From positions 1 to 64,000 of the IMG/VR virus record IMGVR_UViG_3300031994_000051: a stretch of DNA of 64,000 nucleotides; one strand, given 5' to 3'. This document shows, piece by piece, positions 1-19,256 of this stretch. Positions within the stretch are counted from its first letter, which is position 1; each line of letters opens with the position of its first letter. The notes below the pieces were generated by a model, which did not search any database, had not been told where the DNA came from, and saw only the letters and a list, made by a program, of their open reading frames with translations. The position numbers and the translations under genes are program-made. Origin of the DNA: a virus. Taxonomy: Duplodnaviria; Heunggongvirae; Uroviricota; Caudoviricetes.

Positions 1-1540
1 AAAGACCGCTATAGAGATTGTTGATAAGATTTTGAAGATTTTCAAAGGTCTTCCGTTTTGGTTGAAACCTGGCACAAAGTCTTGGGGTAAGACTTCGATC
101 GAACTTGACAACGGGTCGAAAATTTTGTCAACAGCAACAACAAATACGGCATCGATCGGTTTTACGATTCATTGTGTTCTACTTGACGAGTTTGCTCATA
201 TTCCAGCTAACATAGTGAACAATTTCTGGAGATCTGTTTATCCGACTTTGTCTTCGTCTAAGGTTTCTCAGTGTATAATTACATCGACACCCAATGGAAC
301 AACCAATAAGTTCTATGAACTCTGGTCTGGTGCTATGGAAAAGAAGAACACATTTTACCCGATCAGGGTCGATTATTGGGAAGTTCCAGAACATGATGAC
401 GCTTGGGCTGCGAAACAACGTGCTAATTTTGGAGATGAGGAGTTCGCCCAAGAGTTCGAGCTTCAGTTCAACAAGAACTCTAAGATGTTGATGAAGGCTA
501 AGGACATGGACTTCATGGATCGTTTTGTTAAGGATTATGTCCATAAAGAAGTTTATGTAGGGAACCAGTATGCCAACGATGAACATATTACATGGCATCC
601 AGACTTTGATCCTAATAATATAGACGAGAACGATCGGTTCATTTTCCTTGTTGACATATCAGAGGGAAACGGAGATCCAGACGAAATCATGCAGACTAAG
701 GAACGCACGCCAGATTCAAACGCATTTACAATATTCAAGCTTGTTCTTAATTCAAAGGCAAATCTTAGGAGATATTCCCATTTGAGTTGTTCACCGAAGG
801 ATTGTGTAAGATTCGTTCAGGTTGGAAAGTATACATGCAGTTCTGAGGATGAGGTCCATATGGCAAAGGTGTGTTCGGCCCTCGCTTATAATTTGTTCAA
901 GGATCACGAACGCAGCAATGTGAGGGTTATGGTGGAGATGAATTTCAACGGCAAGTCTTTCTTTGAGGAGTTCCGCAGGCACCAGTTCTATACGGATTCT
1001 ACTGTGTTGAAGACGTATCACAAGAAACCCATCCCTGGTGAGCATCAGAAAAAGAAGTCTGGTTTCAAAACGACTTCAAACAAGGAAAGCTATTGTATCA
1101 AGGGCAACAAGCTTATATCTATGCACAGGGTTATTGTAACATGTAAGGACACTTTCAACCAGATGAAGTCGTTTGGTTATGTGAGAGGTAAATTGAAGGG
1201 GATTGCTTGCCACGACGATCTATCGATGCCAGTGTTCAACCATATTCCTAGGATGCTCGACGAGTCCAATTTCGTGAACTGGATAGAGGAGTATCTGTAT
1301 TTCAACGCAAACAGGAGCAAGGTCTATGAATTGAACGAGATTATACAGAAATGGGAGATTGATAACCCAGAGATGAGTGATGGTGATTTTATGGAACTTT
1401 TCGGAATGGATGAAACCGTTAATGAATCTAGTGACTTCGTTGATTTCGAACATGTCACTTATGGAACTGGATTTTCTTATCCTATGCAGCAGAACGCATA
1501 CGGGCAGCAAATATCATATGCTTCTCTTTTGAACAGATAA
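1..1540 (+). CDS. terL: terminase large subunit, C-terminal ~510 codons (frame open to window edge; 5' end upstream)
   Basis: Frame open from nt 2. Walker-B-like VLLDEFAH; terminase motif ITSTPNG; acidic nuclease-domain region FLVDISEGNGDPDE. TAA at 1538-1540. Confidence 0.8.
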   Translation, partial: KTAIEIVDKILKIFKGLPFWLKPGTKSWGKTSIELDNGSKILSTATTNTASIGFTIHCVLLDEFAHIPANIVNNFWRSVYPTLSSSKVSQCIITSTPNGTTNKFYELWSGAMEKKNTFYPIRVDYWEVPEHDDAWAAKQRANFGDEEFAQEFELQFNKNSKMLMKAKDMDFMDRFVKDYVHKEVYVGNQYANDEHITWHPDFDPNNIDENDRFIFLVDISEGNGDPDEIMQTKERTPDSNAFTIFKLVLNSKANLRRYSHLSCSPKDCVRFVQVGKYTCSSEDEVHMAKVCSALAYNLFKDHERSNVRVMVEMNFNGKSFFEEFRRHQFYTDSTVLKTYHKKPIPGEHQKKKSGFKTTSNKESYCIKGNKLISMHRVIVTCKDTFNQMKSFGYVRGKLKGIACHDDLSMPVFNHIPRMLDESNFVNWIEEYLYFNANRSKVYELNEIIQKWEIDNPEMSDGDFMELFGMDETVNESSDFVDFEHVTYGTGFSYPMQQNAYGQQISYASLLNR

Positions 1541-1544: not shown

Positions 1545-1585
1545 CTTTTTTGTTATCTTCTTTTTCCGTATATTTGCATCATAAA
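1545..1585 (+). promoter_or_regulatory. class-I promoter (Bacteroidetes type: -33 TTTG, -7 TATATTTG)
   Basis: ttttttg...ttccgtatatttgca upstream of the ClpX-like gene. Confidence 0.6.
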
Positions 1586-1602: not shown

Positions 1603-2739
1603 TTGAAAGAAGTAGAGTTACCGAATAGTGTCAAGTTCAGATATTATACGCCTAAAGAGCTGAAAGCCCATCTAGACGAGTTTATCATAGGTCAGGACGA
1701 AGCGAAGAAGATCCTGTCTGTTGCTGTCTATAATCATTACAAGCGCATATTGCTTTCTTATGTTAACCCAGATGCCATGGTTGAGAAAAGCAATATCATC
1801 ATGGCTGGTCCAACTGGTTGCGGGAAGTCTGCAATGATCAGGTGCATCGCGGATTATATGGGTGTGCCTTGTTATATCGCAGATGCAACGACATTGACAC
1901 AGGCTGGTTATGTTGGGGATGACGTGGAGTCTATCATAACAGGTCTTCTTAGGAAATGTGGGTGGAGTGTCGCCCAAGCGCAATATGGGATCGTTTCCAT
2001 AGACGAGATTGACAAGTTGGCTAAAAGAGGAAGCAACCAGCATATTTCCCGTGATGTCGTTGGTGAAGGTGTGCAACAGGCTTTGTTGAAAATGGTAGAA
2101 GGTGATTTGGTTGGTGTTCCACCGCAAGAGGGTAGGAAACATCCAGATCAACCTTTGATTTATGTCAACACAAAAAACGTCCTTTTCATAGGTACAGGAG
2201 CTTTTTCTGGTATAGAGGACACTATCAAGTCAAGGATCAACGCAAACAAGATAGGGTATTCTATATCTTCAAATAGCGGAATAGATGTTGGATCGGAAGA
2301 TTTCAATCCGTTTGACTATCTGTCGCAGGATGATTTGAAAAAGTATGGAATGATTCCAGAGTTCATAGGAAGGTTTCCTGTCATATCTACGGTGAATTCC
2401 TTGAAAAAGGAGGATCTTGTCAGGATATTGACTGAACCTAAGAATTCTCTTGTGAACCAGTACAAGCTTATGATGTCGTTGGATGGGATCGATCTTATCG
2501 TGACAAATGATGCTCTTGAACGTGTGGCAGAAATTGCTTTGAAGATTGGAACTGGAGCGCGTGGTTTGAGATCCATGATGGAATCCGTATTGAATGATTT
2601 CGTTTATGAATATTCTGATTCAAACGATTCTTCTTGCTCCGATGAAGATGGAGAAATTAAACTTGCTCCTTTGGAAATTACAAAGGATGATGTAGAGAAA
2701 ACCATATCGAAAAGATACGCAAATTATCTGGAGGATTAA
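1603..2739 (+). CDS. clpX: ClpX-like AAA+ unfoldase lacking the N-terminal zinc-binding domain
   Basis: LDEFIIGQDEAKKILSVAVYNHYKRI; Walker A MAGPTGCGKS; ATTLTQAGYVGDDVESI; sensor/IGF-like region GYSISS. Class-I promoter at 1545-1585. Confidence 0.85.
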   Translation: MKEVELPNSVKFRYYTPKELKAHLDEFIIGQDEAKKILSVAVYNHYKRILLSYVNPDAMVEKSNIIMAGPTGCGKSAMIRCIADYMGVPCYIADATTLTQAGYVGDDVESIITGLLRKCGWSVAQAQYGIVSIDEIDKLAKRGSNQHISRDVVGEGVQQALLKMVEGDLVGVPPQEGRKHPDQPLIYVNTKNVLFIGTGAFSGIEDTIKSRINANKIGYSISSNSGIDVGSEDFNPFDYLSQDDLKKYGMIPEFIGRFPVISTVNSLKKEDLVRILTEPKNSLVNQYKLMMSLDGIDLIVTNDALERVAEIALKIGTGARGLRSMMESVLNDFVYEYSDSNDSSCSDEDGEIKLAPLEITKDDVEKTISKRYANYLED

Positions 2740-2743
2740 AGCA

Positions 2744-3271
2744 ATGAAAAAGAAGACAATAATAGCAATAGTTGGTCCATCTGGATCTGGAAAGACAACT
2801 CTTTCTTTATTTCTGTATGGAAGGTATGGAATACCTTATGTGTGTTCATATACAACAAGACCCATGCGGGATAGAGAGATGAATGGTGTCGAACACATAT
2901 TTGTCACTGAAAACGATGTTCCAGATCAATCGGAAATGATTGCATACACGGTTTTCGGAGGATATCAATATTGGGCAACGAAGTCTCAAGTAAAGGATGT
3001 TACGTCATATGTGATCGACGAGAAGGGGTTGGTTTATCTTATGGAAAAGTTTGGAGATGAGTTCAACATATTTTCTGTGTATGTCACCAGAGAGAACAAT
3101 GATACAGATCAAGAGCGAAGGGACAGGGACAACGATAGGATTTTGTTTGATGAATCAGAATACGATCTAATTCTTCATAACAATTTCCCTACAAAATCTG
3201 AAATGTGCATAACGGATGGTGAGCTTATCGTTAATGCTTTAAAAGATAAAGGGATAGAAATAAATTGTTAA
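2744..3271 (+). CDS. P-loop nucleotide kinase, guanylate-kinase-like
   Basis: Walker A IVGPSGSGKTTL. GMP-kinase-like signature YTTRPMRDREMNGVEHIFV. Confidence 0.6.
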   Translation: MKKKTIIAIVGPSGSGKTTLSLFLYGRYGIPYVCSYTTRPMRDREMNGVEHIFVTENDVPDQSEMIAYTVFGGYQYWATKSQVKDVTSYVIDEKGLVYLMEKFGDEFNIFSVYVTRENNDTDQERRDRDNDRILFDESEYDLILHNNFPTKSEMCITDGELIVNALKDKGIEINC

Positions 3272-3275
3272 TAAA

Positions 3276-4226
3276 ATGCCAGTAACAAACAAATTATTCA
3301 CGGAGCTTTTCAGGGCAAAGTCCATAGACAATATGGTTCTTCCCGACAGGGTAAGGAACGCTGTGAGCAAGGGTCTTGTTCAGAATATGTTCCTTTATGG
3401 ACCTCAAGGCACTGGGAAAAGCACAATTGCCAGAATCCTTGTTGAAGGGTTTGATGTGTTGAAGATTAACGGTTCTTCAGAGAACGGAATCGATGTCATA
3501 CGAAATCAGGTTGTCAGTTTCGCGAGTGCTGTTTCCCTTGAGTTTGGATCGGAGAAGATGAAGGTCATATACATAGACGAGGCAGATGGACTAACAGATA
3601 ATGCTTGGGATGCACTTAGAGAAACTATCGAGCATTATGCTGGTTCCGTTAGGTACATTTGCACATGCAACAAAATCGACAAGATTCCTGGTCCGATCAA
3701 GTCAAGGTTCGAGTGTATCCCTGTGTTTCCAGTGACAAAGGACGAGGAATCCCAGATGATCGCTGGATATTGCGCATGGGTTGGGCAGATTCTTACAGCG
3801 ATCAAGGTTGAGTATGATAATGAGACTCTTGAGACTTTTGTCAGGAACAGTTTCCCAGACATGAGAAGCATCCTGAATTCGATTCAGTCTCTTTATACGC
3901 AGGATATAAAGATTCTGAATAAGGATGCCTTGGTTAAGACGTTCGATTGTTCGGACTTGTTTAATGTGATAATAAACGGATCGGATCCAGTGGAGAACTA
4001 TAAGTTCGTCATGTCCAACTACGCTTCAAGTCCAGACGACGCGATGCTTGAGATAAGTAGATCGATTGTCGATTTCATCCGTGTGAATTATCCTCAATAT
4101 ACTCCTAAGGTTCCTTATCTCATTACAACGATTGCTGAGTACATGTTCCAGCTGACAACTGCTCCAGACAGGGTGTTGGTGTTGCTTGCATGTATGTATA
4201 AACTTCAAATGGTATTGAAATCATGA
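3276..4226 (+). CDS. clamp-loader AAA+ ATPase (RFC small subunit / gp44-like)
   Basis: LYGPQGTGKST Walker A; IYIDEADGL Walker B; SRC-like KSRFECIP; sensor-2 region. Confidence 0.7.
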   Translation: MPVTNKLFTELFRAKSIDNMVLPDRVRNAVSKGLVQNMFLYGPQGTGKSTIARILVEGFDVLKINGSSENGIDVIRNQVVSFASAVSLEFGSEKMKVIYIDEADGLTDNAWDALRETIEHYAGSVRYICTCNKIDKIPGPIKSRFECIPVFPVTKDEESQMIAGYCAWVGQILTAIKVEYDNETLETFVRNSFPDMRSILNSIQSLYTQDIKILNKDALVKTFDCSDLFNVIINGSDPVENYKFVMSNYASSPDDAMLEISRSIVDFIRVNYPQYTPKVPYLITTIAEYMFQLTTAPDRVLVLLACMYKLQMVLKS

Positions 4227-5416
4227 GTGAAGGGAATACAAATAAGATAAACCTTATCCTTGACTTCAACAATTTTGCCATGAGATCCATGTTTACATGT
4301 AATTTCATGGATCCGACGATCAAGATTAACAACTTCGACACGGATGAAGAATGCCGAATGCTTGTTGAGAAGATTCTTCTTGATATGTGCAAGGTTGTAA
4401 GGATGTTCTCGCCGAAAAGGGTGATCGTGTCGTGTGATTCAAAGTTGCCTTGGAGAAACGATCTTTATAAGGATATCGACGGTGAGACGTATAAGGGGAC
4501 CCGTATAAAGGATGAGAAGAAGAACTGGAAGAAAATCTATGCGACATTAGACGAACTCAGGGACATACTGAAGGACAAGGGGTTTATTGTCACCCTTATC
4601 GATAGGACGGAGGCAGATGACATTACAACTATGTGGAAGGAGCATCTTTTCTCTATAGGGGAGGATGTTGTCATAGTGTCTTCCGATATGGACTGGGTCC
4701 AACTTGTTGGCATGAGCCAAAAAGGTAATGTTTGTGTATGTTTCAACCCTATAGCAAATAACAAGGGAAGGAAACATCTTTATATGGATGAATCAATCCA
4801 AGATTGGCTGAACCAAAAGGATACGACGGATATCTTTTTCAGGAACTATAATCTGACGAGGGCTACTATTAACAAACTTCCATCGATCGACGTCAAGGTT
4901 GATTTTGATGTTATCGATCCAAAGAAGGTTCTTTTGAATAAGATCATGGCTGGAGACAGATCCGATAATGTGCCCGCGTTCTGGCACTACTACAGGAACG
5001 GGAAGAAGCAGAACGTGACGGAGCTGAAGGCAAGCCATGTATTTGAGTCCCTTGGTATCAGTACGTTGGATGATCTTATCAAGGCGAATGATGATCGATT
5101 GTTGAAAGACGCACTGGAGAAGGAGATGAAACAGGATATCGATCTTGACTTTAAGGAGAGGATGGATCGCCAGAGAAAACTTGTTGAATTGAACAGTTCT
5201 TTGTTCCCTAAGAAGATTGTAAAGGCTTTCGCTGGGATGGTCGATGATGCGATGAATCAGTGCAGCGTGAATACGGCAAGCGTTCGATCTGACGAAATAT
5301 TGAATGGAACCAAGTATGCAATCAAAAAGGCTCCAGAGGGAAGGTTGAATTCCGTGTTTGATGACATAGATGCGCTTGGGAAGTTCTCTTTCCCGTCAAA
5401 TAAATTATTCGATTGA
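4223..5416 (+). CDS. 5'-3' exonuclease / flap endonuclease (T4 RNase H-like), putative
   Basis: N-terminal LILDFNNFAMRS resembles the T4 RNaseH opening. Acidic clusters VSCDS, VSSDMDW. ATGA overlap with upstream gene. Confidence 0.5.
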   Translation: MSEGNTNKINLILDFNNFAMRSMFTCNFMDPTIKINNFDTDEECRMLVEKILLDMCKVVRMFSPKRVIVSCDSKLPWRNDLYKDIDGETYKGTRIKDEKKNWKKIYATLDELRDILKDKGFIVTLIDRTEADDITTMWKEHLFSIGEDVVIVSSDMDWVQLVGMSQKGNVCVCFNPIANNKGRKHLYMDESIQDWLNQKDTTDIFFRNYNLTRATINKLPSIDVKVDFDVIDPKKVLLNKIMAGDRSDNVPAFWHYYRNGKKQNVTELKASHVFESLGISTLDDLIKANDDRLLKDALEKEMKQDIDLDFKERMDRQRKLVELNSSLFPKKIVKAFAGMVDDAMNQCSVNTASVRSDEILNGTKYAIKKAPEGRLNSVFDDIDALGKFSFPSNKLFD

Positions 5417-5425
5417 TTTAAATTT

Positions 5426-5632
5426 ATGAAGGGAACAGTAAAAATAGTTCGCGATAGTCGAAATGGAGTTTACAATGTTTTTTGTAAAAATTATTTTTGG
5501 CAAAGATGGAAACCGTTGATCGTCAACGGAAAACAATTAAGTTTCAAGTCATTCAAAGATTTTAGCGACATAACAAAGATAGAATCGTTTGGTGAAATTC
5601 GAATAAGGGTCGAAAAATATCAAGGAATGTAG
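5426..5632 (+). CDS. small hypothetical protein
   Basis: 68-codon ORF, no motif. Confidence 0.3.
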   Translation: MKGTVKIVRDSRNGVYNVFCKNYFWQRWKPLIVNGKQLSFKSFKDFSDITKIESFGEIRIRVEKYQGM

Positions 5633-5639
5633 TTTGCCA

Positions 5640-5667
5640 AATAGCGAAATTTCCGTATATTTGCATC
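5640..5667 (+). promoter_or_regulatory. class-I promoter
   Basis: TTGCCA-N16-TATATTTGCA; TTCCGTATATTTGCA at 5651-5665. Confidence 0.55.
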
Positions 5668-6198
5668 ATGAAAGAATTGAATAATACTGGAGAATCATTC
5701 AATATAGTTGACGATGATCAATGTCAGATCGATGTAGAGGTTATTGAGGAAAATCCGAAGGGAAAGAAACAGAGTCCGTTCGTTGCAATAGTTAACGCGC
5801 TGTTCATGGATCCGAACTATATCTATAACCTGACATATGAGACCGCAAGGCAGAACATATTTATGGTGTTGAGAAGGCTTGCGATCAAATATCCGATCGA
5901 AGCGAATGTGTTCAACGACGGTAAGGTGAACGCATTTGATGTGTTGAAGTTCTGGTCTGATTTCCTTTACAACGGTGTCTCGGTTCCGAGATGGACATAC
6001 ACGGCTGGTGCTTCCAAGTCAAAGGCAGTAAAGTCTGATGTCACACAAGATCAGATAAGACTCTATAAGAAACACTACGACATAACGGATAAGGAGTTTA
6101 GTGACGCGATGCGGTTCTTTCCAGAGGAAACAATAAACGAGATAAAGGAGATCGTCGCTTTCTATGATCAGTTAGAAAAATTTAAAAAGGAAAATTAA
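5668..6198 (+). CDS. hypothetical protein
   Basis: ATG 18 nt downstream of class-I promoter element 5651-5665. Confidence 0.5.
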   Translation: MKELNNTGESFNIVDDDQCQIDVEVIEENPKGKKQSPFVAIVNALFMDPNYIYNLTYETARQNIFMVLRRLAIKYPIEANVFNDGKVNAFDVLKFWSDFLYNGVSVPRWTYTAGASKSKAVKSDVTQDQIRLYKKHYDITDKEFSDAMRFFPEETINEIKEIVAFYDQLEKFKKEN

Positions 6199-6199
6199 A

Positions 6200-6730
6200 A
6201 TGCAAAAGTTGAGTTTAATTTCCGATGACTTGAAAAAACTTGTTGATGCAAGTCTGTCAACAGCAAATATAAAGAAATACGAGCTTTGTTGCATGAATAG
6301 GTTCAACATTGGGAGAGTTATCGTGAAGTGTGTTAAGGGAGAAAAACCAGTAATAGAGCTTCCAGAAACTGCGAATAAGGCTTACATGAAACTGTGGAAA
6401 AATGACGTAGGAAGCGTTTTGGTATCCGAGTTGAAGAAAGAGACGCCAGAGTTGTTCGAACTCGTTACGGCGAACTTTAGGGCACTCCTGAAGAAGATTT
6501 CCGACGATGAGTTTGATGCGTTCAAAGAGAAAGGCTTTGTTCATGTAGTTTTGGCTGATTCTAGATATACGATATTGAAGGCTGTTGGCCAGAAAAAATC
6601 ATATAGCGAGTCATCTGATGATTATGATTTTGAAGATGATTTTGACGAAAGTATGAATTCATCACAGATTATAGAGCAGGATGAGATATATAAAGAGCCT
6701 GTTGCAAACGATAGTTATCAACTCTTTTAA
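6200..6730 (+). CDS. hypothetical protein, acidic C-terminus
   Basis: Start 2 nt after upstream stop; ORF length 176 aa. Confidence 0.5.
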   Translation: MQKLSLISDDLKKLVDASLSTANIKKYELCCMNRFNIGRVIVKCVKGEKPVIELPETANKAYMKLWKNDVGSVLVSELKKETPELFELVTANFRALLKKISDDEFDAFKEKGFVHVVLADSRYTILKAVGQKKSYSESSDDYDFEDDFDESMNSSQIIEQDEIYKEPVANDSYQLF

Positions 6731-6742
6731 AAATACAATATA

Positions 6743-7390
6743 ATGCAAAAACTAACCAAAGAATTGATCATTGGTGATAACAGGATCACCCATCAGGAAA
6801 AGATTCAGATCTTCGAGGAACTTCTTAGATCAACTGGAAGGCAAGGGATCGATCAAGTTATAGACTTTGCCAAGAGAACTGATTTTTACACAACACCAGC
6901 TTCTTCTAAGTATCATTCGAATTACGATGGCGGATTGTTAGATCATTCCCTATGCGTTTATGCAATTGCCGAAGAATATTTGACATCGATCAGTTCTTTC
7001 TCCCCAGATGTCGCTGAGAAAATGGATCATAATAGTGTTATCATTTCTTGTCTTTTGCACGATTTTTGTAAGATCTGTTTCTACAAGAAAGGCCAAAAAT
7101 GGAAGAAGGATGAGACGAATTCGTGGGTTCAATATGATTCATATATAATTGAGGATACGTTTCCTATTGGACATGGAGAAAAGTCTGTAATTATGTTGCA
7201 AAGTCTCGGTTTGCAAATGACTGCAGAAGAGATGCTTGCTATCAGGTTCCATATGGCTGGGTGGGGTGATGAATCTAAGGAATATGCGGCTTCGAGGACA
7301 AATGCTTTGAAGATTTCTCCATTGGTTCATCTTGTCCAGATGGCTGATTTTTCTTCGTCAATTCTTTTTGAAAAAACTATCGAAATTTGA
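6743..7390 (+). CDS. HD-domain phosphohydrolase
   Basis: H...HD pattern (KYHSNYDGGLLDHSL ... LLHDFCK). Confidence 0.7.
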   Translation: MQKLTKELIIGDNRITHQEKIQIFEELLRSTGRQGIDQVIDFAKRTDFYTTPASSKYHSNYDGGLLDHSLCVYAIAEEYLTSISSFSPDVAEKMDHNSVIISCLLHDFCKICFYKKGQKWKKDETNSWVQYDSYIIEDTFPIGHGEKSVIMLQSLGLQMTAEEMLAIRFHMAGWGDESKEYAASRTNALKISPLVHLVQMADFSSSILFEKTIEI

Positions 7391-7391
7391 T

Positions 7392-7430
7392 TTTTTGGTT
7401 TAAATATAATTCCGTATATTTGCAGTAAGA
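7392..7430 (+). promoter_or_regulatory. class-I promoter
   Basis: TCCGTATATTTGCA at 7411-7424. Confidence 0.55.
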
Positions 7431-7457
7431 AAAACATAAACGTTAAAATTCAAAAAT

Positions 7458-8336
7458 ATGTTAGATTTAGACAAAATCTTTAAGACTTTCTTGAATATGT
7501 TTGGGGAGTCTAGCTATTCAAAATCGGATTATGATTCCTATCAGGAAAGTGTTGTTGACGGAAAACGTCATGTAACCTATGGGTTTAATGGTGATTACGA
7601 TCACGAAAAGATGAAAGGTGCAATCATCAAGGCAATGGCCCATTGGTGTAATTTCGTAACTGTTTCCGATGACTTCGATTCGTTTGTTATCACATTTGTG
7701 TTTGACGGAAAGGAATGTTTCCATTTCACATGGGATAAGGAGACAAAGAGATTCCTTACGGAGGATCCAGATGGAACCGTGTTCGCGTACAATTTCGCCA
7801 CTGGTACGATTGAACAGTGTAATCCTATCTCAAATACTCAGTGCAATCACGAAGAAGATAACGAAAAAAAGAATAATTCTATTGATTTCTGTGTACCAGA
7901 GAACAAATGTGATGAAGAACTGCCTAAAAACAAAAATCTTGCTAGTGTTATCAAAGAGCGTATAGAATCTTATGATAAAACATATGACATCAATCCTTGT
8001 GATGGATGTGAGTCGTTGTTCTGTCCAGTGAAAGCGATTGATATGTTTATTAATAATATCCAAAATAATACGAATTACGCATCCCTTCGCGACGAAGATG
8101 GTAATGTCACTGGTTTGGTTACCGATGTGATTGAACTTATTTCAGATGACGTTGAATTTCCCCTTGATATGTCGAATATAGACATCTACAACAAATTGTA
8201 CCATGATGAATCAGATCTTCTTGATGCTTTTTGTGAGGATTTCGTTGAGCTGTATGGATTCACAAAGTGTTATTGGGTCGCCAATAAGGATGAAATCGGA
8301 AACGTTGTTCAACTTACAGTGAATTGGGTGTTCTGA
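7458..8336 (+). CDS. hypothetical protein (Cys-containing, acidic)
   Basis: Class-I promoter 7392-7430 upstream; terminator 8370-8406 downstream. Confidence 0.5.
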   Translation: MLDLDKIFKTFLNMFGESSYSKSDYDSYQESVVDGKRHVTYGFNGDYDHEKMKGAIIKAMAHWCNFVTVSDDFDSFVITFVFDGKECFHFTWDKETKRFLTEDPDGTVFAYNFATGTIEQCNPISNTQCNHEEDNEKKNNSIDFCVPENKCDEELPKNKNLASVIKERIESYDKTYDINPCDGCESLFCPVKAIDMFINNIQNNTNYASLRDEDGNVTGLVTDVIELISDDVEFPLDMSNIDIYNKLYHDESDLLDAFCEDFVELYGFTKCYWVANKDEIGNVVQLTVNWVF

Positions 8337-8432
8337 GCATATCAATATTTATAAAATGAATATTTAAATGATCAGGGGAATTGATAAAGTTCTCCTGATC
8401 TTTTCTAAAAACATAAAATCAAATACATAAAT

Positions 8433-10340
8433 ATGTCTAAGATTATCGGTATAGATTTAGGTAGTACCATGAGTGCTGTTGCCGTATGTCAGAACGGCAA
8501 ACCAGAAATTATCGTGAATCAGGACGGCGAAAGAACAACACCGTCCGTTGTCGGATATGGCAAAGATGGTGAAATCAAGGTTGGCTCAGCGGCAAAGAGA
8601 CAAAGTGTTATCAACTCAAAGAGCACGATCGAAGTCATTAAGAGGTTCATTGGAAACTCATGGAAAAAGACAAAGCAATACGCAAAGGACTTTACGTATG
8701 AATTGGTGGAAGGCCCTAATGATTCCGTAAGAGTCAAGATCGGTGAAAAGGAATATACCCCACAGGAAATCAGTGCAGAGGTCTTGAGGAAACTGAAATC
8801 AGCAGCTGAGGATTTCCTCGGCGAGAAAGTGGATGGTGCCGTTATCACGGTTCCAGCTTATTTTGATGATCAACAACGTACAGCAACGATCGAAGCAGCC
8901 AAGATTGCTGGTCTTGACTGCAAGCGTATCATCAACGAGCCAACAGCGGCTTGTCTGGCTTTCGGATATGACAAACCTGATAAGACCAATGTGATCCTTG
9001 TCCTTGACCTTGGCGGGTCAACGGCTGATGTCTCCATCATTGAGATGGGTGACGGCGTGTTCGAGGTCAAGTCTACCCAAGGCGACATGGTTTTGGGAGG
9101 ACGTGACCTTGACAATGAGATTGTGAAGTGGATCGTGGACGAATTCAACAAACAGTTCGGATATGATGTGTCCAAGGATCCTATGGCGTTCCAGAGAGTC
9201 ATCGAGGAAGCTGAAAAGGCAAAGATCAGTCTTTCTTCTTCGGTCTCGACAGAAATAAACATGCCTTACCTTGCTGTTGTCGATGGTCTCCCGAAACATT
9301 TTGTTGCTACACTTACAAGGGCACAATTCGAACGTATGGCAGAAGGGTTCATGGCAAAGGTGGAAAATCTTGTGAAAGGTGCATTGAGTGCAGCCAATAT
9401 GGGAACATCACAAATCAATGAGGTCCTTCTTGTCGGAGGAACGACACGTGTTCCTTTGATTCAGGACTTTGTCCGTAAGTATTTCGGCAAGGAAGGAAAC
9501 AAGTCTGTCAATCCCGATGAAGCAGTAGCTTTGGGCGCAGCAGTACAAGGATCGATCCTCGCTGGTGACATGGGAAGCGATCTTGTGCTGCTTGACGTTA
9601 CTCCGATGAACCTCAATATCACAACACTTGGTGGCGTCGCAACAGTTATGATTCCAGCAAACACTACAATCCCTACCTCTCATGATAACATATTCTCGAC
9701 GGCTGATGATAACCAAACATCGATCACAGTTATCGTTACGCAGGGAAACAGGCCGATCGCATCGCAGAACAAACAACTAGGTTTGTTCAATCTCGATGGG
9801 ATTGCCCCAGCCGAACGTGGTGTCCCTCAATTGAAGGTTACGTTCGATATTGACTCGAATGGTGTTCTGAGTGTCACTGCAAAGGATATGGCGACCAATA
9901 AGGAACAGAGTATTCGCATAGAGGGTTCCTCTAACTTGAGTGATGAGGAGATCGATCGTATGCGTAAGGATGCTGAGGCTCATGAGGCTGATGACAAGGC
10001 TTATACGGAGAAGGTTCAAAAGAACAACATGTATGAGACTCAGATTTTCGCTGCGGAAAAGACATTGAAGAACAACGGGGATGACATTAGCGAGGAACTG
10101 AAGACAGAACTTCAGGAAAAGACTGACGCTATGAAGGCTGTGTTCAATGTCAACGAGTCTGACAGGGACATGTCTGCTGTGGAATCAGCATCGAAGGCTT
10201 TGCAGGAAATCCAGTGGAAGGTTAGCGCGGAGATTTATAAGAAATCCAATCCAGACGCAAGCGTTGGTGCAAACCCGTTTTCTGGACAAGGTAATCCTTT
10301 TTCTGGGTTTGATTTTGCTCAAGCGCAGCCTCAACAGTAA
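8433..10340 (+). CDS. dnaK: Hsp70 chaperone DnaK
   Basis: [39 protein letters not shown], substrate-binding and lid regions. Terminator 10359-10403. Confidence 0.95.
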
Positions 10341-10358
10341 TTTTATTGTTATTTTGGA

Positions 10359-10403
10359 AAAGGATCGATTAAATTTATTTGATCGATCCTTTTTCTTTTT
10401 TTA
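10359..10403 (+). terminator. intrinsic terminator after dnaK
   Basis: aggatcgat-taaatttattt-gatcgatcct + T-run. Confidence 0.65.
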
Positions 10404-10426
10404 TATTTTTTCCGTATATTTGCTGT
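10395..10426 (+). promoter_or_regulatory. class-I promoter
   Basis: TCCGTATATTTGCT at 10411-10424. Confidence 0.5.
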
Positions 10427-10846
10427 ATGAAACGTGAAAGAAAATATTTAACCAAGGACGAGATGAATCTTTTGTACAAATATGGTATCAAAATTACAAG
10501 AGACCGTTATGATGTGCATGATTTATTGTCCATATTGCCATATAAGTGGAAAGAAGGTTCTAAGAAAAATAGAGATGAGCATTGGGAATATATCAACTTT
10601 TATAAGGATGATATTGAATGGACATGTACAACTCCATATTGGCAATATGAGGGTGCTTGTGGATTGGTTGGATGGAACATAGTTCATGGCGAAACGTTGG
10701 TTGAATGTTTGTTTAACGCTGTTATTAGATTGGCTATTAACGACAGGACATCATTACATGTTTCAAAATTGGCAAAGACTGGCTTTTTTGCTGATGATCT
10801 ATATCATGTGACAAAAGAAGCGATGGAAAGATATTATGCAGAGTAG
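10427..10846 (+). CDS. hypothetical protein
   Basis: ATG (MKRERKY) immediately after class-I promoter 10411-10424. The ORF-track start at 10379 lies inside the terminator/promoter. Confidence 0.5.
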   Translation: MKRERKYLTKDEMNLLYKYGIKITRDRYDVHDLLSILPYKWKEGSKKNRDEHWEYINFYKDDIEWTCTTPYWQYEGACGLVGWNIVHGETLVECLFNAVIRLAINDRTSLHVSKLAKTGFFADDLYHVTKEAMERYYAE

Positions 10847-11156
10847 GTTTATTTGGCTCGCGGTTGACTCAAATGGAGATGAACGATTAACTTCAAATCC
10901 ATGTGGGTTTCAGAGATTTTCTCCAAAAGCGTTTAATGAAGGAGATAGATACGAAAATAAGAAGGTTGTTTCATATGATCAAACGATTCTTGACCATGAT
11001 GTTTGGATTGAATATCATGATTCGGATGATATTCCTAAATTTGGCGTAGTTCCACGTTGGAACTATCTTCCAAGGGGGACGATAGAAAAGATAATTGGAA
11101 GAAAACTAACATGGGAAGACGAACCAGTAAAAGTGACAGAAATAGAAAATGATTAG
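10836..11156 (+). CDS. hypothetical protein
   Basis: ORF with overlap to upstream stop. Confidence 0.45.
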   Translation: MQSRFIWLAVDSNGDERLTSNPCGFQRFSPKAFNEGDRYENKKVVSYDQTILDHDVWIEYHDSDDIPKFGVVPRWNYLPRGTIEKIIGRKLTWEDEPVKVTEIEND

Positions 11157-11589
11157 CAGTTATAAGGTTATAGAAGAAAGACTTACACCAAGTGGTCGTA
11201 TAGAATATTTGACTTTGCCACTTTATGTTTGGTTGACTGTTGATGAGGTTGAAGGCCATTCTAAAATGATAGCAAAACCTCAATATTCTTCAAAAATTAT
11301 TCATGGTATTCATTCGTTTGTAAATCTGGAAGATGCAAAAAAATGGATGGTTGAAAATTTTCTTGGTTATTATGCCACAAGACCAGCTATCTATCGATGC
11401 GAGTCCGAAGAATCTAAATGCCATATAGAGGATGGAAAGGTGATTTCTGAAGAGATTCGTTTTTGTGAACCGTTGTTTCATATGGTTAACGGGAAGATTT
11501 CCGATTATGTAAGGATGACAATTCCAGAGAAGAAAAAGTCTTCTTATGGTATCATTTACGAAGAGTCTGAAATCACTGGGGATGTGTAA
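11149..11589 (+). CDS. hypothetical protein
   Basis: ORF, 8-nt overlap with upstream gene. Confidence 0.45.
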   Translation: MISSYKVIEERLTPSGRIEYLTLPLYVWLTVDEVEGHSKMIAKPQYSSKIIHGIHSFVNLEDAKKWMVENFLGYYATRPAIYRCESEESKCHIEDGKVISEEIRFCEPLFHMVNGKISDYVRMTIPEKKKSSYGIIYEESEITGDV

Positions 11590-11609
11590 AAACTAAAGAA
11601 AATAATTAT

Positions 11610-11954
11610 ATGGAATACGAAGATTTTATGAAGAATTATAATAAAATGCACAAATGTTGCCCAGTTTGTGGATCAAAGCATCATTTAACAACACTTGTTG
11701 CATGTTTGTATGATCAAAATCATCCAGAGAAATATGTAGATAGGAATAAAGTAGAGTGTTGCAATTGTGGATGGATAGGGATTAAACACGATATGGTTCC
11801 AGAAATAATAACTGGTGTTGAACTAATCGCTGAAGAGAGAAAACGTCAAATCGAAAAAGAAGGCTGGACCAAAGATCATGATAAAGAACATTATCTAGGA
11901 CAACTTGCTGATGCTGCAGTTTCATATGCGTTGACAGAAACAGAAAGAAAATAA
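11610..11954 (+). CDS. Zn-ribbon protein (CCPVCGS...CCNCGW). An in-frame stop-free extension follows to 12131
   Basis: Two CxxC pairs. TAA at 11952 is followed by 58 sense codons in the same frame, ending at the terminator. Confidence 0.5.
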   Translation: MEYEDFMKNYNKMHKCCPVCGSKHHLTTLVACLYDQNHPEKYVDRNKVECCNCGWIGIKHDMVPEIITGVELIAEERKRQIEKEGWTKDHDKEHYLGQLADAAVSYALTETERK

Positions 11955-12119
11955 ATCTGGAAATTATACACTACAGATGAGAACGTTCCTGATGTGCCAC
12001 CAATTTGGCCATGGGAAAAATCTTGGTGGAAGCCGACACCTAATGATAGAGTAAAGGAACTTGTCAAAGCTGGAGCATTGATCGCTGCAGAAATTGACAG
12101 ATTGCTTGAACAAAATAAA

Positions 12120-12151
12120 GCCGCCAACTGAGTTGACGGCTTTCCTTTTTC
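12120..12151. terminator. bidirectional terminator between convergent genes
   Basis: ccgccaac-tgag-ttgacgg, A-run upstream, T-run downstream. Confidence 0.5.
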
Positions 12152-12163
12152 TGTAACTTCATC

Positions 12164-12979
12164 TTATTTTACATATCGTTCGAAATATTTCAGTATTGCC
12201 CTGACGTATATTTCCACGATCGCATCAAATCCTTCTTTACTCTTTAAGAACAAAACGTTATCGATATTAGTCATGAACAGGGATTCCACAAGTACAGCTG
12301 GTATGTCTGTCTCTTTAAGGACAGTGTAATTTGCCTCCCAATCCTTGTCCCCGTCAGACGTCTGTGTAGATATTTGTATTCCATATCTTGGGAGAATCTC
12401 TTCAGCTGCTTCATAGAAACAATCTGCAAGTTTATCTCCAGCTGTTTGCCCAATAGATGTAAATGCAGACCAGTAAGCAGCATTGTTCCCCGTATCCCAC
12501 TTGTCTCCGTTTCCGTGTGCATTGACATGGCATGATATGAATATGTGTTTCAGTTCTGGATATCTGTTCTTCATTTCGTTAGATCTGTTTGCTCTTACCA
12601 TAACTGGAACGTCATAGTCGAGTTCTGGTGTGACCATGTACGTTTTAAATCCGAGTTTTTTCAATCTTTCGTTTACGGCTTTGGAAACTCTCCTGTTGTA
12701 TTCATACTCGTATAATGTAAGTTCATCTACTGTATGGTTCCCGTAACTGAGTCCTATCAGCGCCGCTGGGCTTCTTTTCCCAGCTGTTGTGCTCGCGTGA
12801 CCGTTATCTATATGTACCATGAGTTTTCCGTGATCTTTCATTTCTTGTTCTGGTTCGTTTTGGTCCACTATTTGGGTTGATGCTGAAGAATCGATCCCAC
12901 TGGGATCTTCTGTATGCTGTGGTTCAGGATCGATATGTTTTTGTTTCCATTTTTCAAACAAGGATCTGAAAATACACAT
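12164..12979 (-). CDS. N-acetylmuramoyl-L-alanine amidase (Amidase_3-type endolysin)
   Basis: HIFISCHVNAHGNGDKWDTGNNAAYWSAF with Zn-ligand pattern. Convergent with the Zn-ribbon gene at a shared terminator (12120-12151). Confidence 0.8.
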   Translation of the reverse strand: MCIFRSLFEKWKQKHIDPEPQHTEDPSGIDSSASTQIVDQNEPEQEMKDHGKLMVHIDNGHASTTAGKRSPAALIGLSYGNHTVDELTLYEYEYNRRVSKAVNERLKKLGFKTYMVTPELDYDVPVMVRANRSNEMKNRYPELKHIFISCHVNAHGNGDKWDTGNNAAYWSAFTSIGQTAGDKLADCFYEAAEEILPRYGIQISTQTSDGDKDWEANYTVLKETDIPAVLVESLFMTNIDNVLFLKSKEGFDAIVEIYVRAILKYFERYVK

Positions 12980-12985
12980 TATTTT

Positions 12986-14056
12986 TTATATTGGATTTAA
13001 TGTTAATCTTATTGCTCTTGAATCACCGTCTTCTTCATAACTTAATTCGAAATATGTATTCCCTATACAATATAATGTACAGTTTCCTATTTTTTTAGGT
13101 TGTTTATCTCCAATTGTGATTGTTACGTCTTGTAATTCAATAGTCTTATCTTTTGTTAATGTACAATTTCTGTTTTGTGTTTTTCCATTTATTGTAACGG
13201 GAGTATATTTCTCACCCCATGCATAAAATGTTCTGTAAAATATTTGTTGACTCTCGTTTTCTTTTAGAATGTTGTTTGTGTATTTTTTGATAAAGGAATC
13301 TGATAATGGTATATATGTTCTTTGTTCGTTTATATTTGTATTAATCCAAGATTTGTTAAAGATGGTATTTTTCATCTTTTCTTCGTCGTTGCAATCATAT
13401 TCGGTTTGCATTAATTTTTTTCCGTTTTTGTTGTTTATTTGAATAAGAACTGAGTTTTTATCGACAACGCCAAGTCCAACAAATATAGTATTTCCGTTCT
13501 TTCCTTTCAGTGAATAAGTTCCAGTGATATTATTCGTCCCATCCCATTTTGTGTAACCGTATGATAACAATTTGTTTTGCAATGAATCTAAACAATTATT
13601 GTAAGATTCGTTACAATTTTCGTTATTTGTAACATAGTCCGATCTTTTGATAATTTGTTCAGATGATGGTGAATATTTTATCCATTCATTGTATATTATT
13701 GATGCGAAACATTCTTTGATGTCATTAACGATTCCTGTGCATCCGATCGCTATTGTGCTCATTTTTGTTCCTTTCGGAAAATCTAGGTTTCTGAATGCCC
13801 AGTCTGTTAGATCCCTGACACCATCAACAATCCCGATATACTCATATTCATCCTCGAATCCTGGGATTTGTGTAAGGATGATGTAATTCTTCAGATCGTC
13901 GATTTCATTCATTTCGTTCTTGAACTCATATATACCAACTTCACTCCAGAGTTTGATGACATATACGCTACCGTTTCTTGATTTGCATTCTCTCCTGACT
14001 TCAACGATTTCATCAACAGTATCAAAAGTTAGGAGTTGTTCTTTTATGTTTGTCAT
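12986..14056 (-). CDS. hypothetical protein (alternative upstream starts up to 14200)
   Basis: Long ORF. Start chosen at MTNIKEQ; the longer N-terminus is hydrophobic/low-complexity and overlaps the plus-strand promoter. Confidence 0.5.
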   Translation of the reverse strand: MTNIKEQLLTFDTVDEIVEVRRECKSRNGSVYVIKLWSEVGIYEFKNEMNEIDDLKNYIILTQIPGFEDEYEYIGIVDGVRDLTDWAFRNLDFPKGTKMSTIAIGCTGIVNDIKECFASIIYNEWIKYSPSSEQIIKRSDYVTNNENCNESYNNCLDSLQNKLLSYGYTKWDGTNNITGTYSLKGKNGNTIFVGLGVVDKNSVLIQINNKNGKKLMQTEYDCNDEEKMKNTIFNKSWINTNINEQRTYIPLSDSFIKKYTNNILKENESQQIFYRTFYAWGEKYTPVTINGKTQNRNCTLTKDKTIELQDVTITIGDKQPKKIGNCTLYCIGNTYFELSYEEDGDSRAIRLTLNPI

Positions 14057-14074
14057 TTGTATAAATTGGCTTTC

Positions 14075-14110
14075 TCTATTTATCGGAATTCCGTATATTT
14101 GCATGAGTAA
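14075..14110 (+). promoter_or_regulatory. class-I promoter (GrpE-DnaJ unit)
   Basis: TTCCGTATATTTGCA at 14089-14103. Confidence 0.55.
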
Positions 14111-14125
14111 AGATAGATATTCGAA

Positions 14126-14599
14126 ATGGAAGAAAAAGATAATTTGAATCAAGAACAAGAAATCGTTCAACAAACTGAAGTACAACAGGTTGATTGGCAT
14201 GAGATGTATCTGAGATCTGTTGCGGATTTCACAAACATGAGAAACCGATACGAGAAGATGTTATCGGATTGCAATAGATCTGGCATAAGAGAAACAATAG
14301 AAAAGGTTGTTTCTCCTTTGTTCAATGATATTGCCCGTGGTATGAAAAACGGTGTAGACGGGTGTGATCTTATGTACAAGAATTTGTATAATAATCTTCG
14401 TTCGATAGGAATTGAACCGATCGGGTGGAATATAAAATATGGAGTGTTTAACGAGGAGACAATGGAAGCGATTGGTATTTATCCTACGGATAAATCTGAA
14501 TATGATAACACCGTAAGCGATGTTTATGAATATGGATTTTTCGATGAAATAAACAAGAAGGTTATTACTCACGCTAAGGTTGTAATTTATAAAAAATAA
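14126..14599 (+). CDS. grpE: GrpE-like nucleotide exchange factor
   Basis: YLRSVADFTNMRNRYEKM (cf. GrpE AEFENxRKR), VSPLFNDIARGM, MYKNLYNNLRSIGIEPIG...FNEETMEAIG, C-terminal KVITHAKVVIYK. Class-I promoter 14089-14103. Confidence 0.7.
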   Translation: MEEKDNLNQEQEIVQQTEVQQVDWHEMYLRSVADFTNMRNRYEKMLSDCNRSGIRETIEKVVSPLFNDIARGMKNGVDGCDLMYKNLYNNLRSIGIEPIGWNIKYGVFNEETMEAIGIYPTDKSEYDNTVSDVYEYGFFDEINKKVITHAKVVIYKK

Positions 14600-14627
14600 T
14601 TGATAAAGATAAACAGGAGAAATAATC

Positions 14628-15668
14628 ATGGAAGGAAAAAGAAATTACTATGATGTTCTCGGTGTTCAGAAGAATGCCAGTGAAAACGAGATAAAGAGTG
14701 CTTTCCGTAAACTGTCCAAGAAATATCATCCAGATGTTTGTAAGGATACTGATGCCGAGGAGAAGTTTAAGGAAGTGAACGAGGCTTATGGTGTATTGTC
14801 GGATCCAGAAAAGAAACAGATGTATGACACATATGGGACTGTGGATCCTAATGATATCAGACAGCAGGATCCTTTTGCAGGTATGGATCCGTTTGGAATG
14901 ATGCGTGGATTCGGAATGCGTCGCGGAGGACAGGTAAAGGAAAGAGGCGGTGACTTGAAGATTCAAATCGAGCTTTCTTTTGATGAAATCTATACTGGAA
15001 TACACAAGAAGATTAAGATGGGTAGGATGTGTACTTGTCATAGATGCAATGGTTCTGGGAGTGAAAGCAATTCCACAGGGACATGTAAGAGATGTGATGG
15101 TCATGGAATGGTTTATGAGGAAATAAGGAAGGGGAATTTTGTCCAGCGAAGTATGCATCCTTGTCCAGATTGCCATGGGACTGGAAGGACAATAACGGAT
15201 CCGTGTCCGAATTGTGGAGGAAGTGGTTTAGAAAAGAAGACTGTTGATATAGAGTTCGATGTTCCTGCTGGCATATATGATAATTCATATTTCGTGATCG
15301 AAGGAAAAGGTAATGCTGGTCCACATCGAGGTGTGCCAGGTGATTTGCTTGTTTTTGTTACTGAGAAGCCTAATCAATATGGATTGAAGAGAGATCAAAA
15401 GAACAACATCCTTTATAAGGTAAAGGTTCCTTATAAGACAATGATTTTCGGAGGAGATGTCAAGTTGCCGTATGTGAATGGAGGAACAAAGAAGATTCAC
15501 ATAGGTGAAGGAACCGAGTCTGGAAAGATTGTCACATTAAGTGGTCAAGGGTTCCCAGATCCTAACAATCCGAGAATTAAGGGAAATTATGTCGTTGATG
15601 TTGAGTGTGATATTCCAAAGCCAAGCGATTTGAGTGAGGACCAGAAATTTAAGATAATGAACATCTAA
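14628..15668 (+). CDS. dnaJ: DnaJ co-chaperone (J domain, 4x CxxCxGxG zinc finger, C-terminal domains)
   Basis: YYDVLGV...YHPD; [32 protein letters not shown]. Confidence 0.9.
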
Positions 15669-15717
15669 AAAAACGATCGATCATATGTCTGTAAGTTGAT
15701 CGATCGTTTTTCTTTTT
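15667..15717. terminator. bidirectional intrinsic terminator (dnaJ / 922-aa gene)
   Basis: aaaaacgatcgatca...tgatcgatcgttttt. Confidence 0.7.
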
Positions 15718-18515: not shown

Positions 18516-19256
18516 TTATTGGAACATTAGGAACCAGTCTGGATTTTGTTGTTTGTCAATATATTCCTTAACTTCATCCAGATATTGTTTGCCAAGGTCC
18601 ATGAAATATGTTCCTATAGTGACTCCGCCAACGAGTGTAACCTCGAATGTTTTCAGTACCCTGTGGATTTGAATCATGGTTTTCCCTATGCATTGCTTTA
18701 GAAAATAATAGTCGTCATAAAGGGCAGAGTCTTCTATCTGGACATAAACCCTGCACAGGACTGGAGCGATAGGATCGTGGCCTATGACTTTCAGTCTCTT
18801 TGTGTTCAAGTTGAACTGGAAGTTGATGTCGGTAAGGGTGAATGATCTTGCCAAATCGAACCAGCTATAGCTAATTGTACGACCAGTAATGATGTCCGAT
18901 GAGAAGGGGGAAAGCCATAGATCGGATCCCATGACCCTTTCTATGTTAAGGTCTGGATCGTTGATTCCAAATAACCTGCTTCCGTCCTTTATCTCCCTGA
19001 ATTCTTCTATACCCCAGACGCAATCTGGAAATTGAATGGTCCTTGATGCACGGAATTCTGGAGTTCTAAACTGGGTGACTGGAACTATTCCGTATCTTAA
19101 TTCAACGGTGTCCCTCCAGTTTCGGAAAACATTGCGTTTCTCGTTGTCTATGATACGTTCGATCTCATCTTTTTTCACTTCTATCTGAAGTGATCCAGAA
19201 ATAGTTATTTCATCTATTATATTTTGGACAAAATCATCTCTTGTCATTGCTTGCAA
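18516..19256 (-). CDS. hypothetical protein
   Basis: ORF directly upstream (same strand) of the 922-aa gene. Confidence 0.55.
   Translation of the reverse strand: MQAMTRDDFVQNIIDEITISGSLQIEVKKDEIERIIDNEKRNVFRNWRDTVELRYGIVPVTQFRTPEFRASRTIQFPDCVWGIEEFREIKDGSRLFGINDPDLNIERVMGSDLWLSPFSSDIITGRTISYSWFDLARSFTLTDINFQFNLNTKRLKVIGHDPIAPVLCRVYVQIEDSALYDDYYFLKQCIGKTMIQIHRVLKTFEVTLVGGVTIGTYFMDLGKQYLDEVKEYIDKQQNPDWFLMFQ

Follow-up and report, generated by a model that had tools for sequence, protein, structure and literature searches.

We analysed a stretch of 64,000 nucleotides (the window), positions 1 to 64,000 of the IMG/VR record IMGVR_UViG_3300031994_000051, a phage of the Caudoviricetes. Four genes on the plus strand of its first 16 kb concern us here: those for a ClpX whose N-terminus lacks the zinc-binding domain (ZBD; 1603-2739), for DnaK (Hsp70; 8433-10340), for a short GrpE, the nucleotide exchange factor (14126-14599), and for a class A (type I) DnaJ (14628-15668). 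Borrowing DnaK, DnaJ and GrpE from the host is textbook behaviour for phages. An interpretation made from the letters alone (the sequence-only reading) had proposed that this phage carries the full triad, and searches with profile hidden Markov models confirmed all the domain calls. The sequence evidence robustly supports both the annotation and the assignment of these genes to the phage.

The product of the DnaK gene, of 635 residues, is full length. It matches Pfam HSP70 with 704 bits (cut-off 20.6) over profile positions 1-598 of 599 and passes the model NF001413 (801 bits, cut-off 648), while remaining slightly under the cut-off of TIGR02350 (786 bits versus 823). The alignment with solved DnaK runs end to end (residues 1-608), with the beta-sandwich and lid regions present, the ATPase motifs intact, and the hydrophobic interdomain linker kept as LVLLDVTP; we take the motifs to correspond to the catalytic residues of E. 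coli DnaK. Also, a segment of about 25 residues that is missing in Geobacillus DnaK is present in the phage protein, whose residues 1-526 align with Geobacillus residues 1-500.

DnaJ begins 28 nt 3' of GrpE. Its 346 residues score above the respective Pfam cut-offs for DnaJ (96.6 bits), DnaJ_CXXCXGXG (51.6 bits) and DnaJ_C (106.4 bits), and they contain an HPD at residues 34-36, a short G/F stretch, four CXXCXGXG motifs (one of them as CPNCGGSG) and the C-terminal client-binding domains.

The GrpE call, the weakest of the four, was the one that the sequence-only reading had exposed to refutation by profile searches, and it has held. The 157-residue protein scores 57.1 bits against Pfam GrpE (PF01025; cut-off 25.8) over profile positions 8-164 of 165, that is, nearly the whole profile, and the predicted fold agrees. 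The AlphaFold2 (AF2) model built from 50 sequences has a mean confidence (pLDDT) of 88 and a predicted template modelling score (pTM) of 0.68, and it places helices at residues 24-74 and 80-93, followed by beta strands, so that the model contains the long N-terminal helix, the helical-bundle segment and the C-terminal beta domain of GrpE. When this model was compared with the PDB by Foldseek, ranks 1-11 were all GrpE or GrpEL1 (E 1.9e-7 to 3e-3; template modelling score 0.50-0.72), and the next match had an E of 0.29. A shallow model from five sequences was poor (pLDDT 61), and its best matches were already GrpE. By sequence, solved GrpEs are matched weakly (best E in the PDB 7e-4). A profile search of 1.84 billion representatives returned about 39 cluster representatives of short GrpE at E up to 1e-10, mostly of 133-176 residues, and F108, M113 and A115, in a region that we take to be the GrpE signature, are invariant among close homologues. 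What makes the protein short is the absence of the disordered N-terminal extension; the conserved core is retained. Judged by profile and predicted fold, then, the product of 14126-14599 is a genuine though divergent GrpE. A mechanically called open reading frame on the minus strand (12986-14200) overlaps the start of this gene; in the gene calls of an identical contig the minus-strand gene starts at the equivalent of 14056, and the overlap is gone. By the profile matches and the model, no part that an Hsp70 cycle requires is missing from the phage.

The ClpX gene starts with TTG and encodes 378 residues. The protein passes the NCBIfam ClpX equivalog NF003745 (448 bits, cut-off 359) and TIGR00382 (422 bits, cut-off 371), but the match to NF003745 covers profile positions 57-388 of 418; with E. 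coli ClpX the protein aligns over residues 57-392 of the latter. The first 56 or so positions of the profile are the ZBD, which is absent: Pfam zf-C4_ClpX finds no match in the protein. Since two stop codons lie immediately 5' of the TTG, no longer reading frame could supply this domain. The missing ZBD noted in the sequence-only reading is thus borne out by both the start of the profile match and the upstream stops, and by its sequence the protein is the ClpX AAA+ module and not a canonical ClpX of full architecture. Aligned with E. coli ClpX, it keeps Walker A (GPTGCGKS), the pore-1 loop (GYVG), Walker B (IDEIDK), the RKH loop (GRKHP) and sensor II (GARGLR), and it has IGY at the position of the ClpP-docking IGF.

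The loss is shared by a whole clade of phage proteins. All of the 120 best ClpX homologues (51-100% identity, mostly 360-397 residues) lack zf-C4_ClpX, and the clade comprises more than 100 clusters at 90% identity. An alignment of 20 diverse ZBD-less members shows G218 of the docking loop unchanged throughout; the residue before it is I, L, M or V and the one after it F or Y, which alternate in this loop, and R178 and K179 of the RKH loop are conserved together with the pore-1 loop; a short N-terminal peptide is conserved in the family as well. In a neighbour-joining tree, which, like that of DnaK described below, carries no support values and samples bacteria sparsely, these 20 proteins form a cluster that excludes the ZBD-bearing ClpX of phage G, Lak-B2 and E. 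coli and has Lak as its sister, which suggests a single loss of the ZBD in the family. We also considered whether the ZBD had been split off into a small neighbouring gene, but the two candidate reading frames found in relatives carry no CxxC pairs or zinc-ribbon cysteines.

The only known role of the docking loop is to dock on ClpP. Because this loop is conserved across the family, the phage ClpX most likely acts on a ClpP. When E. coli ClpX is deprived of its N-terminal domain (ΔN), hexamers still assemble, ClpP is still bound and ssrA-tagged substrates are still degraded; use of the SspB adaptor is lost, and lambda O and MuA are handled poorly. By this precedent the phage protein would be expected to degrade substrates that it recognises through the pore, and to ignore adaptors such as SspB and those substrates that depend on the ZBD.

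The genes around the chaperones are those of a phage, as the sequence-only reading had held, with terminase, clamp-loader, 5'-3' exonuclease, amidase and T4 gp13-like genes interleaved with them. The first 20 kb of the window hold mostly plus-strand genes with a few minus-strand ones between. The 3' part of the terminase large subunit gene (32-1540, plus strand; Pfam Terminase_6N, phrog_2) is cut by the start of the window, and the full gene, of 670 residues, is present in an identical contig. Directly after ClpX come genes for a guanylate-kinase-like protein, an RFC-type clamp loader and a 5'-3' exonuclease (2744-5416, plus strand; Pfam and NCBIfam), which are probably co-transcribed with ClpX and whose order relatives keep. 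Scans with profile models added an HD-domain protein and an amidase, the latter on the minus strand. A T4 gp13-like neck protein (18516-19256, minus strand; Pfam Phage_T4_gp13 on the identical gene of another contig) is 61-97% identical in relatives, where it always adjoins DnaJ.

The identical DnaK and ClpX proteins occur with the same neighbours on contigs from ENA, Logan and JGI assemblies. Relatives whose DnaK is 81-86% identical carry terminase, ClpX, guanylate kinase, clamp loader, exonuclease, DnaK, amidase, GrpE-DnaJ and gp13 on contigs of up to 310 kb, and in those at 59-61% DnaK, GrpE, DnaJ and gp13 are directly adjacent, on 364-kb IMG/VR contigs. GrpE is the positional partner of DnaJ in the relatives, and it changes faster than DnaK, with 26-29% identity between subfamilies versus 59-61%. 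In one sample the phage of the window was split over contigs of 90 and 173 kb. On these grounds the window comes from a jumbo phage of about 310 kb that belongs to a diverse, undescribed, T4-like family with genomes of about 310-364 kb. No near-identical known phage turned up when 20 kb were compared by megablast with 50,697 phage records.

The DnaK of this family seems to be old. Among 5.8 billion proteins, none of the best 120 matches falls below 59% identity, and phage synteny surrounds every one of them whose contig was examined; within the phage family identity is 58-86%. A scan of bacterial genomes, biased by the 8-mer patterns used and serving only as an upper bound on identity, found DnaKs of many phyla in the range of 47-56% and none above about 56%. 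In the neighbour-joining tree the family DnaKs are monophyletic and stand apart from the sampled bacteria (two Bacteroidota among them), from Lak-A1 and from LR756502. Since DnaK forms a clade of its own and reaches at most about 56% identity with any bacterial DnaK found, the data suggest an old phage lineage, and a chaperone set that is ancestral to the family rather than a recent host capture. The sequence-only reading had wanted a DnaK phylogeny to separate host-derived from ancient phage origin; the tree leans to the latter, as far as one without support values can. The similarity of DnaK gave no hint of the host, since the many phyla matched at 47-56% include no preference for Bacteroidota.

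Among phages in the collection, the nearest terminases are those of the Lak megaphages (33% identity, E 1e-97), followed by phage PAU and Tenacibaculum phages. Lak phages (MK250015-MK250029) are gut or rumen phages of Prevotella, a Bacteroidota host (Devoto et al. 2019, PMC6784885), and like the phage of the window they have genes for DnaK, DnaJ, GrpE (a clear match, 140 bits against Pfam) and ClpX; in Lak the DnaJ gene adjoins that of DnaK. They differ in that their ClpX keeps a C4 ZBD, their GrpE lies about 130 kb from DnaK and DnaJ, their DnaK, 45% identical to that of the window, falls outside the clade of the family, and their genomes measure about 540-550 kb, versus contigs of 310-364 kb in the family. 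The terminase identity of 33% and a size below 500 kb mark the phage of the window as a distant relative of the Lak lineage and not as a member of it. The main texts of the Lak paper (PMC6784885) and of the 'huge phages' paper make no mention of these chaperone and ClpX genes.

Promoters point to a similar host. The 'identical promoter motifs' of the sequence-only reading are real: CCGTATATTTGCA has 24 matches in the window at two mismatches or fewer, versus 1.4 expected. Two classes can be told apart. Class A, TTTG-N~20-CCGTATATTTGCA, is found within the region of 1-36 kb, with boxes at 1566, 5653, 7412, 10412, 14091, 25439, 28251, 31322, 32660 and 35234. One exact copy of CCGTATATTTGCA, which contains TAnnTTTG, lies at 1566-1578 (plus strand), about 25 nt 5' of ClpX and with TTTG about 20 nt upstream; another (14091-14103, plus strand) stands in front of GrpE and DnaJ, which thus form a two-gene unit behind a promoter box of the same class as that of ClpX. 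A further class A box (10412-10424, plus strand) follows the hairpin downstream of DnaK. Class B, cTTGaCA-N~17-YCGTATCTTTGCA with the core TATCTTTGCA, precedes many small genes and occurs only in the more GC-rich region of 45-64 kb, at 45034, 46138, 56691, 58685, 61199, 62106 and 63135 on the plus strand and at 53758, 54751 and 55715 on the minus strand; this looks like an early-gene region. The TAnnTTTG present in both classes is the -7 box of Bacteroidota promoters. A scan of the window with the sigma-70 consensus showed no enrichment. No T4-type late promoter box was found upstream of the chaperone and ClpX genes on their strand, which hints at early or middle expression. Because of the TAnnTTTG promoters and of the nearest terminases being those of Prevotella Lak phages, the host is likely a member of the Bacteroidota.

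Taking these results together, we consider it reasonably probable that the locus represents a set of proteostasis genes conserved in an as yet undescribed family of T4-like jumbo phages, distant relatives of Lak with a probable Bacteroidota host, and that it provides an Hsp70 cycle and a ClpP-docking ClpX. In such a system DnaJ would deliver unfolded phage proteins and trigger ATP hydrolysis by DnaK, GrpE would reset DnaK, and the three would co-evolve as a largely self-contained system, adding to the capacity for folding and assembling a very large phage proteome at times when the chaperones of the host are in short supply or shut down. The sequence-only reading had gone further and taken the triad to imply autonomy from host proteostasis or a host with incompatible chaperones; both are hypotheses. 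ClpX, having lost with the ZBD the part that binds adaptors and some substrates and having kept the pore loops, the RKH loop and the docking loop, would form hexamers that dock on ClpP, either that of the host or one encoded elsewhere in the phage genome. The complex would degrade proteins recognised directly through their terminal degrons, would be blind to host adaptors, and would take ClpP away from the ClpX of the host.

Several points weigh against this proposal. Every functional step in it is drawn from sequence, predicted fold and conservation. GrpE stays under every NCBIfam equivalog cut-off (best 36 bits, cut-offs at least 150), and at what we take to be the position of E. coli Arg183 it apparently does not have Arg. 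DnaJ misses TIGR02349 (312 bits, cut-off 377) and NF008035 (272 bits, cut-off 338), its architecture being right and its sequence, by these scores, too divergent for the equivalog name. The search for clpP that the sequence-only reading had suggested was run and found none: tblastn with E. coli ClpP and phage G gp257 gave no match in the window or in 16 related loci of about 20 kb each, and the gene calls of about 18 kb of added flanks include no Clp protease Pfam family, with about 70% of the genome of about 310 kb lying outside this search. As no clpP was found in the parts examined, the partner of ClpX could be the ClpP of the host. In a third subclade (L007, L089, L091 and L092; DnaK 69-73%) ClpX and DnaK occur with no GrpE or DnaJ within 10 kb, so the triad may not be universal in the family. 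DnaK itself is bracketed by two terminator-like hairpins and has no recognisable class A or class B box within 100 nt. The bias of the bacterial DnaK scan and the sparse, unsupported trees count on the same side.

The strongest competitor concerns ClpX, which might act without ClpP, as a dedicated unfoldase or remodeller that disassembles replication or packaging complexes or serves virion assembly. ClpX is able to remodel MuA without ClpP, no clpP was found in any sequence examined, and the gene sits between terminase and replication genes; further, the ClpX and ClpP genes that adjoin in phage G do not do so here. A role in virion assembly or remodelling has been proposed for the ClpX and ClpA of jumbo phages (Iyer et al., PMC7824862). 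However, a docking tripeptide kept in 20 diverse ZBD-less members is not expected of a protein that makes no contact with ClpP, and the host presumably supplies one. Of the two options that the sequence-only reading had left for this protein, pairing with ClpP is thus favoured by the conserved docking loop over the free-standing unfoldase, which we regard as possible but rather unlikely.

A little less probable than that, in our estimation, is a network private to the phage, in which DnaK works only with its own fast-evolving GrpE and DnaJ, escaping host regulation, and ClpX captures the ClpP of the host and redirects it. If this were true, the main regulated protease of the cell would be switched from host substrates directed to it by adaptors and the ZBD to a set chosen by the phage, phage proteins would be shielded from recognition by host ClpX, and a domain-deleted unfoldase hijacking a protease core would represent a new mode of host takeover.

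We give slightly less credit again to the idea that the set serves host takeover or counter-defence, with DnaJ and DnaK titrating or mimicking the host chaperones of defence sensors or stress regulators, and ClpX competing for ClpP and so blocking the adaptor-directed degradation of phage proteins. There are precedents: the J-domain protein Rki of phage RB43 is reported to act on the DnaK of its host and to stabilise sigma-32 (PMC3486835); bNACHT25 requires host DnaJ in order to sense phage, as cited in PMC12619734; and PMC12619734 itself suggests that heat-shock proteins of phages have counter-defence roles. The promoters, which look of a host-sigma type and not of the T4 late type, would suit early or middle expression, and a Tad3-like gene lies a few kb 5' of the terminase. 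But a decoy needs no complete and intact cycle, whereas the DnaK motifs, a class A DnaJ and GrpE are retained here over deep divergence. A counter-defence role would be compatible with the proteostasis set that we prefer, not exclusive of it.

It is improbable, in our view, that the GrpE-like protein has decayed or been repurposed, performing no nucleotide exchange and leaving the phage system dependent on host GrpE. The weak matches to solved and NCBIfam GrpEs (E 7e-4; 36 bits versus at least 150) and the fast evolution of the protein (26-29% between subfamilies versus 59-61% for DnaK) are what such decay would produce, but the Pfam cut-off is passed across the whole profile, the GrpE fold is predicted confidently, the invariant F108, M113 and A115 fall in the presumed signature, the gene is kept directly 5' of DnaJ across the phage family, and some 39 cluster representatives make up a family of short GrpEs. 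Finally, the notion that the chaperone genes are a host fragment (mis-assembled, contaminating, or captured very recently with no phage role) has almost nothing left to recommend it: DnaK is locally more GC-rich (0.44 versus 0.36-0.40 in its surroundings) and many 'phage' records matching DnaK or ClpX look bacterial, but independent assemblies of several origins show the same gene order, this order is kept at DnaK identities of 86, 83, 78, 72 and 61%, always between terminase/clamp loader and gp13, phage promoter boxes precede ClpX and GrpE-DnaJ, and no bacterial DnaK above 56% was found. Contamination, which the sequence-only reading had raised as a concern, is therefore refuted by synteny across assemblies and graded, diverged relatives.

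Parts of this arrangement have been described in other phages. Moraphages are large aquatic phages, most of them with predicted Bacteroidota hosts, and some carry DnaK and DnaJ, which was called unusual for jumbo phages (PMC12619734, 2025). Their DnaK nests in Flavobacteriaceae as a recent host capture, whereas the DnaK clade of the family studied here stands apart from sampled bacteria, and the moraphage paper mentions neither GrpE nor ClpX. Reports of ClpX in jumbo phages exist (Iyer et al. 2021, PMC7824862; PMC12484599). The survey by Iyer et al. of 224 jumbo phages lists ClpX, ClpA, ClpP and sporadic J-domain proteins; of the Hsp70 machinery only the latter were found, and they were predicted to recruit host Hsp70, whereas the phage of the window has a DnaK of its own. 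Likewise Rki of the T4-related phage RB43, the first characterised phage J-domain protein, is reported to act on host DnaK (PMC3486835; PMC12619734), whereas in the window the DnaJ is a full class A protein and comes with a DnaK and a GrpE of the same phage. The ClpX of Bacillus phage G (gp258), also a ClpX-family unfoldase of a jumbo phage, is 46% identical to that of the window over the AAA+ module, but it has 436 residues with a ZBD and its gene directly follows clpP (gp257), whereas the window ClpX has neither ZBD nor adjacent ClpP. In architecture, the closest counterparts are the ΔN constructs of E. coli ClpX (PDB 3HWS and 6PO1), which consist of the AAA+ module only and align over residues 16-342, and ClpX3 of Myxococcus xanthus, a natural ZBD-less paralogue (PMC11423568). 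Unlike the laboratory constructs, the clade described here is natural, phage-borne and diversified.

The sequence-only reading had called the triad uncommon, and as to rarity this stands: GrpE-like matches were obtained in 8 of the 50,697 phage records, a lower bound because the query GrpE is divergent. The triad is not unique, however, since Lak megaphages and LR756504 carry DnaK, DnaJ and GrpE. All components are canonical, and similar sets exist in Lak genomes, so that the triad is rare in phage collections without being confined to this family. Some records of the phage collection that match DnaK, DnaJ or ClpX at about 48-50% look like fragments of bacterial chromosomes, among them short contigs of 'Listeria phage LM 4-11-1', 'Acinetobacter phage MD-2021a' and a 290-kb Salmonella Infantis record; such fragments inflate any raw count of DnaK-bearing phages. 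PHROGs families match all four proteins and label them 'unknown function', and our literature search returned no description of a phage GrpE or of a ZBD-less phage ClpX. A ZBD-less, docking-competent ClpX clade and a family-wide private Hsp70 cycle thus appear to be undescribed.

That an own Hsp70 cycle has been kept through such deep divergence suggests that very large phages are limited in their replication by the capacity or the compatibility of chaperones. For the study of partner specificity, the family offers naturally diverged triples of chaperone and co-chaperones, and its clade of ZBD-less ClpX amounts to a natural experiment on the purpose of the ZBD, with the redirection of host ClpP as a testable idea. 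Further, the work defines a jumbo-phage family whose hosts are apparently Bacteroidota and whose promoters fall into two clear classes.

The hairpins around DnaK lie on the plus strand, one with a 13-pair stem and T run just 5' of the gene (8370-8400) and one with an 18-pair stem and T run just 3' of it (10356-10395). In three relatives (L005, L089 and L101) a hairpin of unrelated sequence occupies the same place 5' of DnaK, and in L089 a TAacTTTGCA box stands immediately 5' of it, so that the hairpin could be part of the DnaK 5' untranslated region rather than a terminator. A CIRCE-like operator was also considered, for which the arm-N9-arm geometry would be suitable, but from relative to relative the arms are entirely different in sequence and T runs follow most of them, and the structure is better read as a terminator or RNA structure. 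GATCGATC recurs as the basis of many hairpins in the window. Between the convergent DnaJ and a minus-strand gene for 922 residues, an inverted repeat read from the sequence (15669-15711; arms AAAAACGATCGATCA and TGATCGATCGTTTTT, 13-nt loop) is likely a bidirectional terminator.

Four small unassigned genes come right after DnaK (10379-11954), none of them detected in more distant relatives; the first is 84% identical in L005, versus 81% for DnaK. In L101, a relative of about 310 kb, an IS605 OrfB/TnpB (Cas12f-like) gene (6183-7427 of that contig) is inserted between DnaK and the amidase, pointing to mobile-element traffic within the block. Just 5' of the terminase, an identical contig (L105, 186-6296) encodes a GH16 glycoside hydrolase, a family B DNA polymerase of 502 residues and the Tad3-like protein, of a Pfam family that we take to be an anti-Thoeris counter-defence.

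In the rest of the window, tblastn with E. coli GroEL and GroES found no match, and Pfam searches of 48 open reading frames revealed no Clp protease and no further chaperone family, adding only SPFH, OmpA and a few weak domains. No tRNAs or Rfam families were found in the window. A 352-residue protein with an OmpA domain (27091-28149) and a 694-residue SPFH/Band_7, flotillin-like protein (29165-31249) are membrane-associated. The reading frames at 44-64 kb are short, and re-reading each stop codon gave no clear signal of an alternative genetic code; small genes simply abound in this region, and every one of them has a class B promoter to itself. At its edge, inside a stretch of about 1 kb (43992-45030), positions 43992-44753 hold no open reading frame of at least 70 residues. 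Tandem iterons occur there, a 25-bp unit GGCACTTCCGAATACCCTTTTTTAG repeated 2.6 times (44348-44412) and a 12-bp unit TTCCGTTTACAA repeated 8.2 times (44478-44577), just 3' of the 42-44 kb bin in which GC skew dips to -0.30, at the point where GC content starts to rise. This stretch may be a replication origin or a regulatory array.

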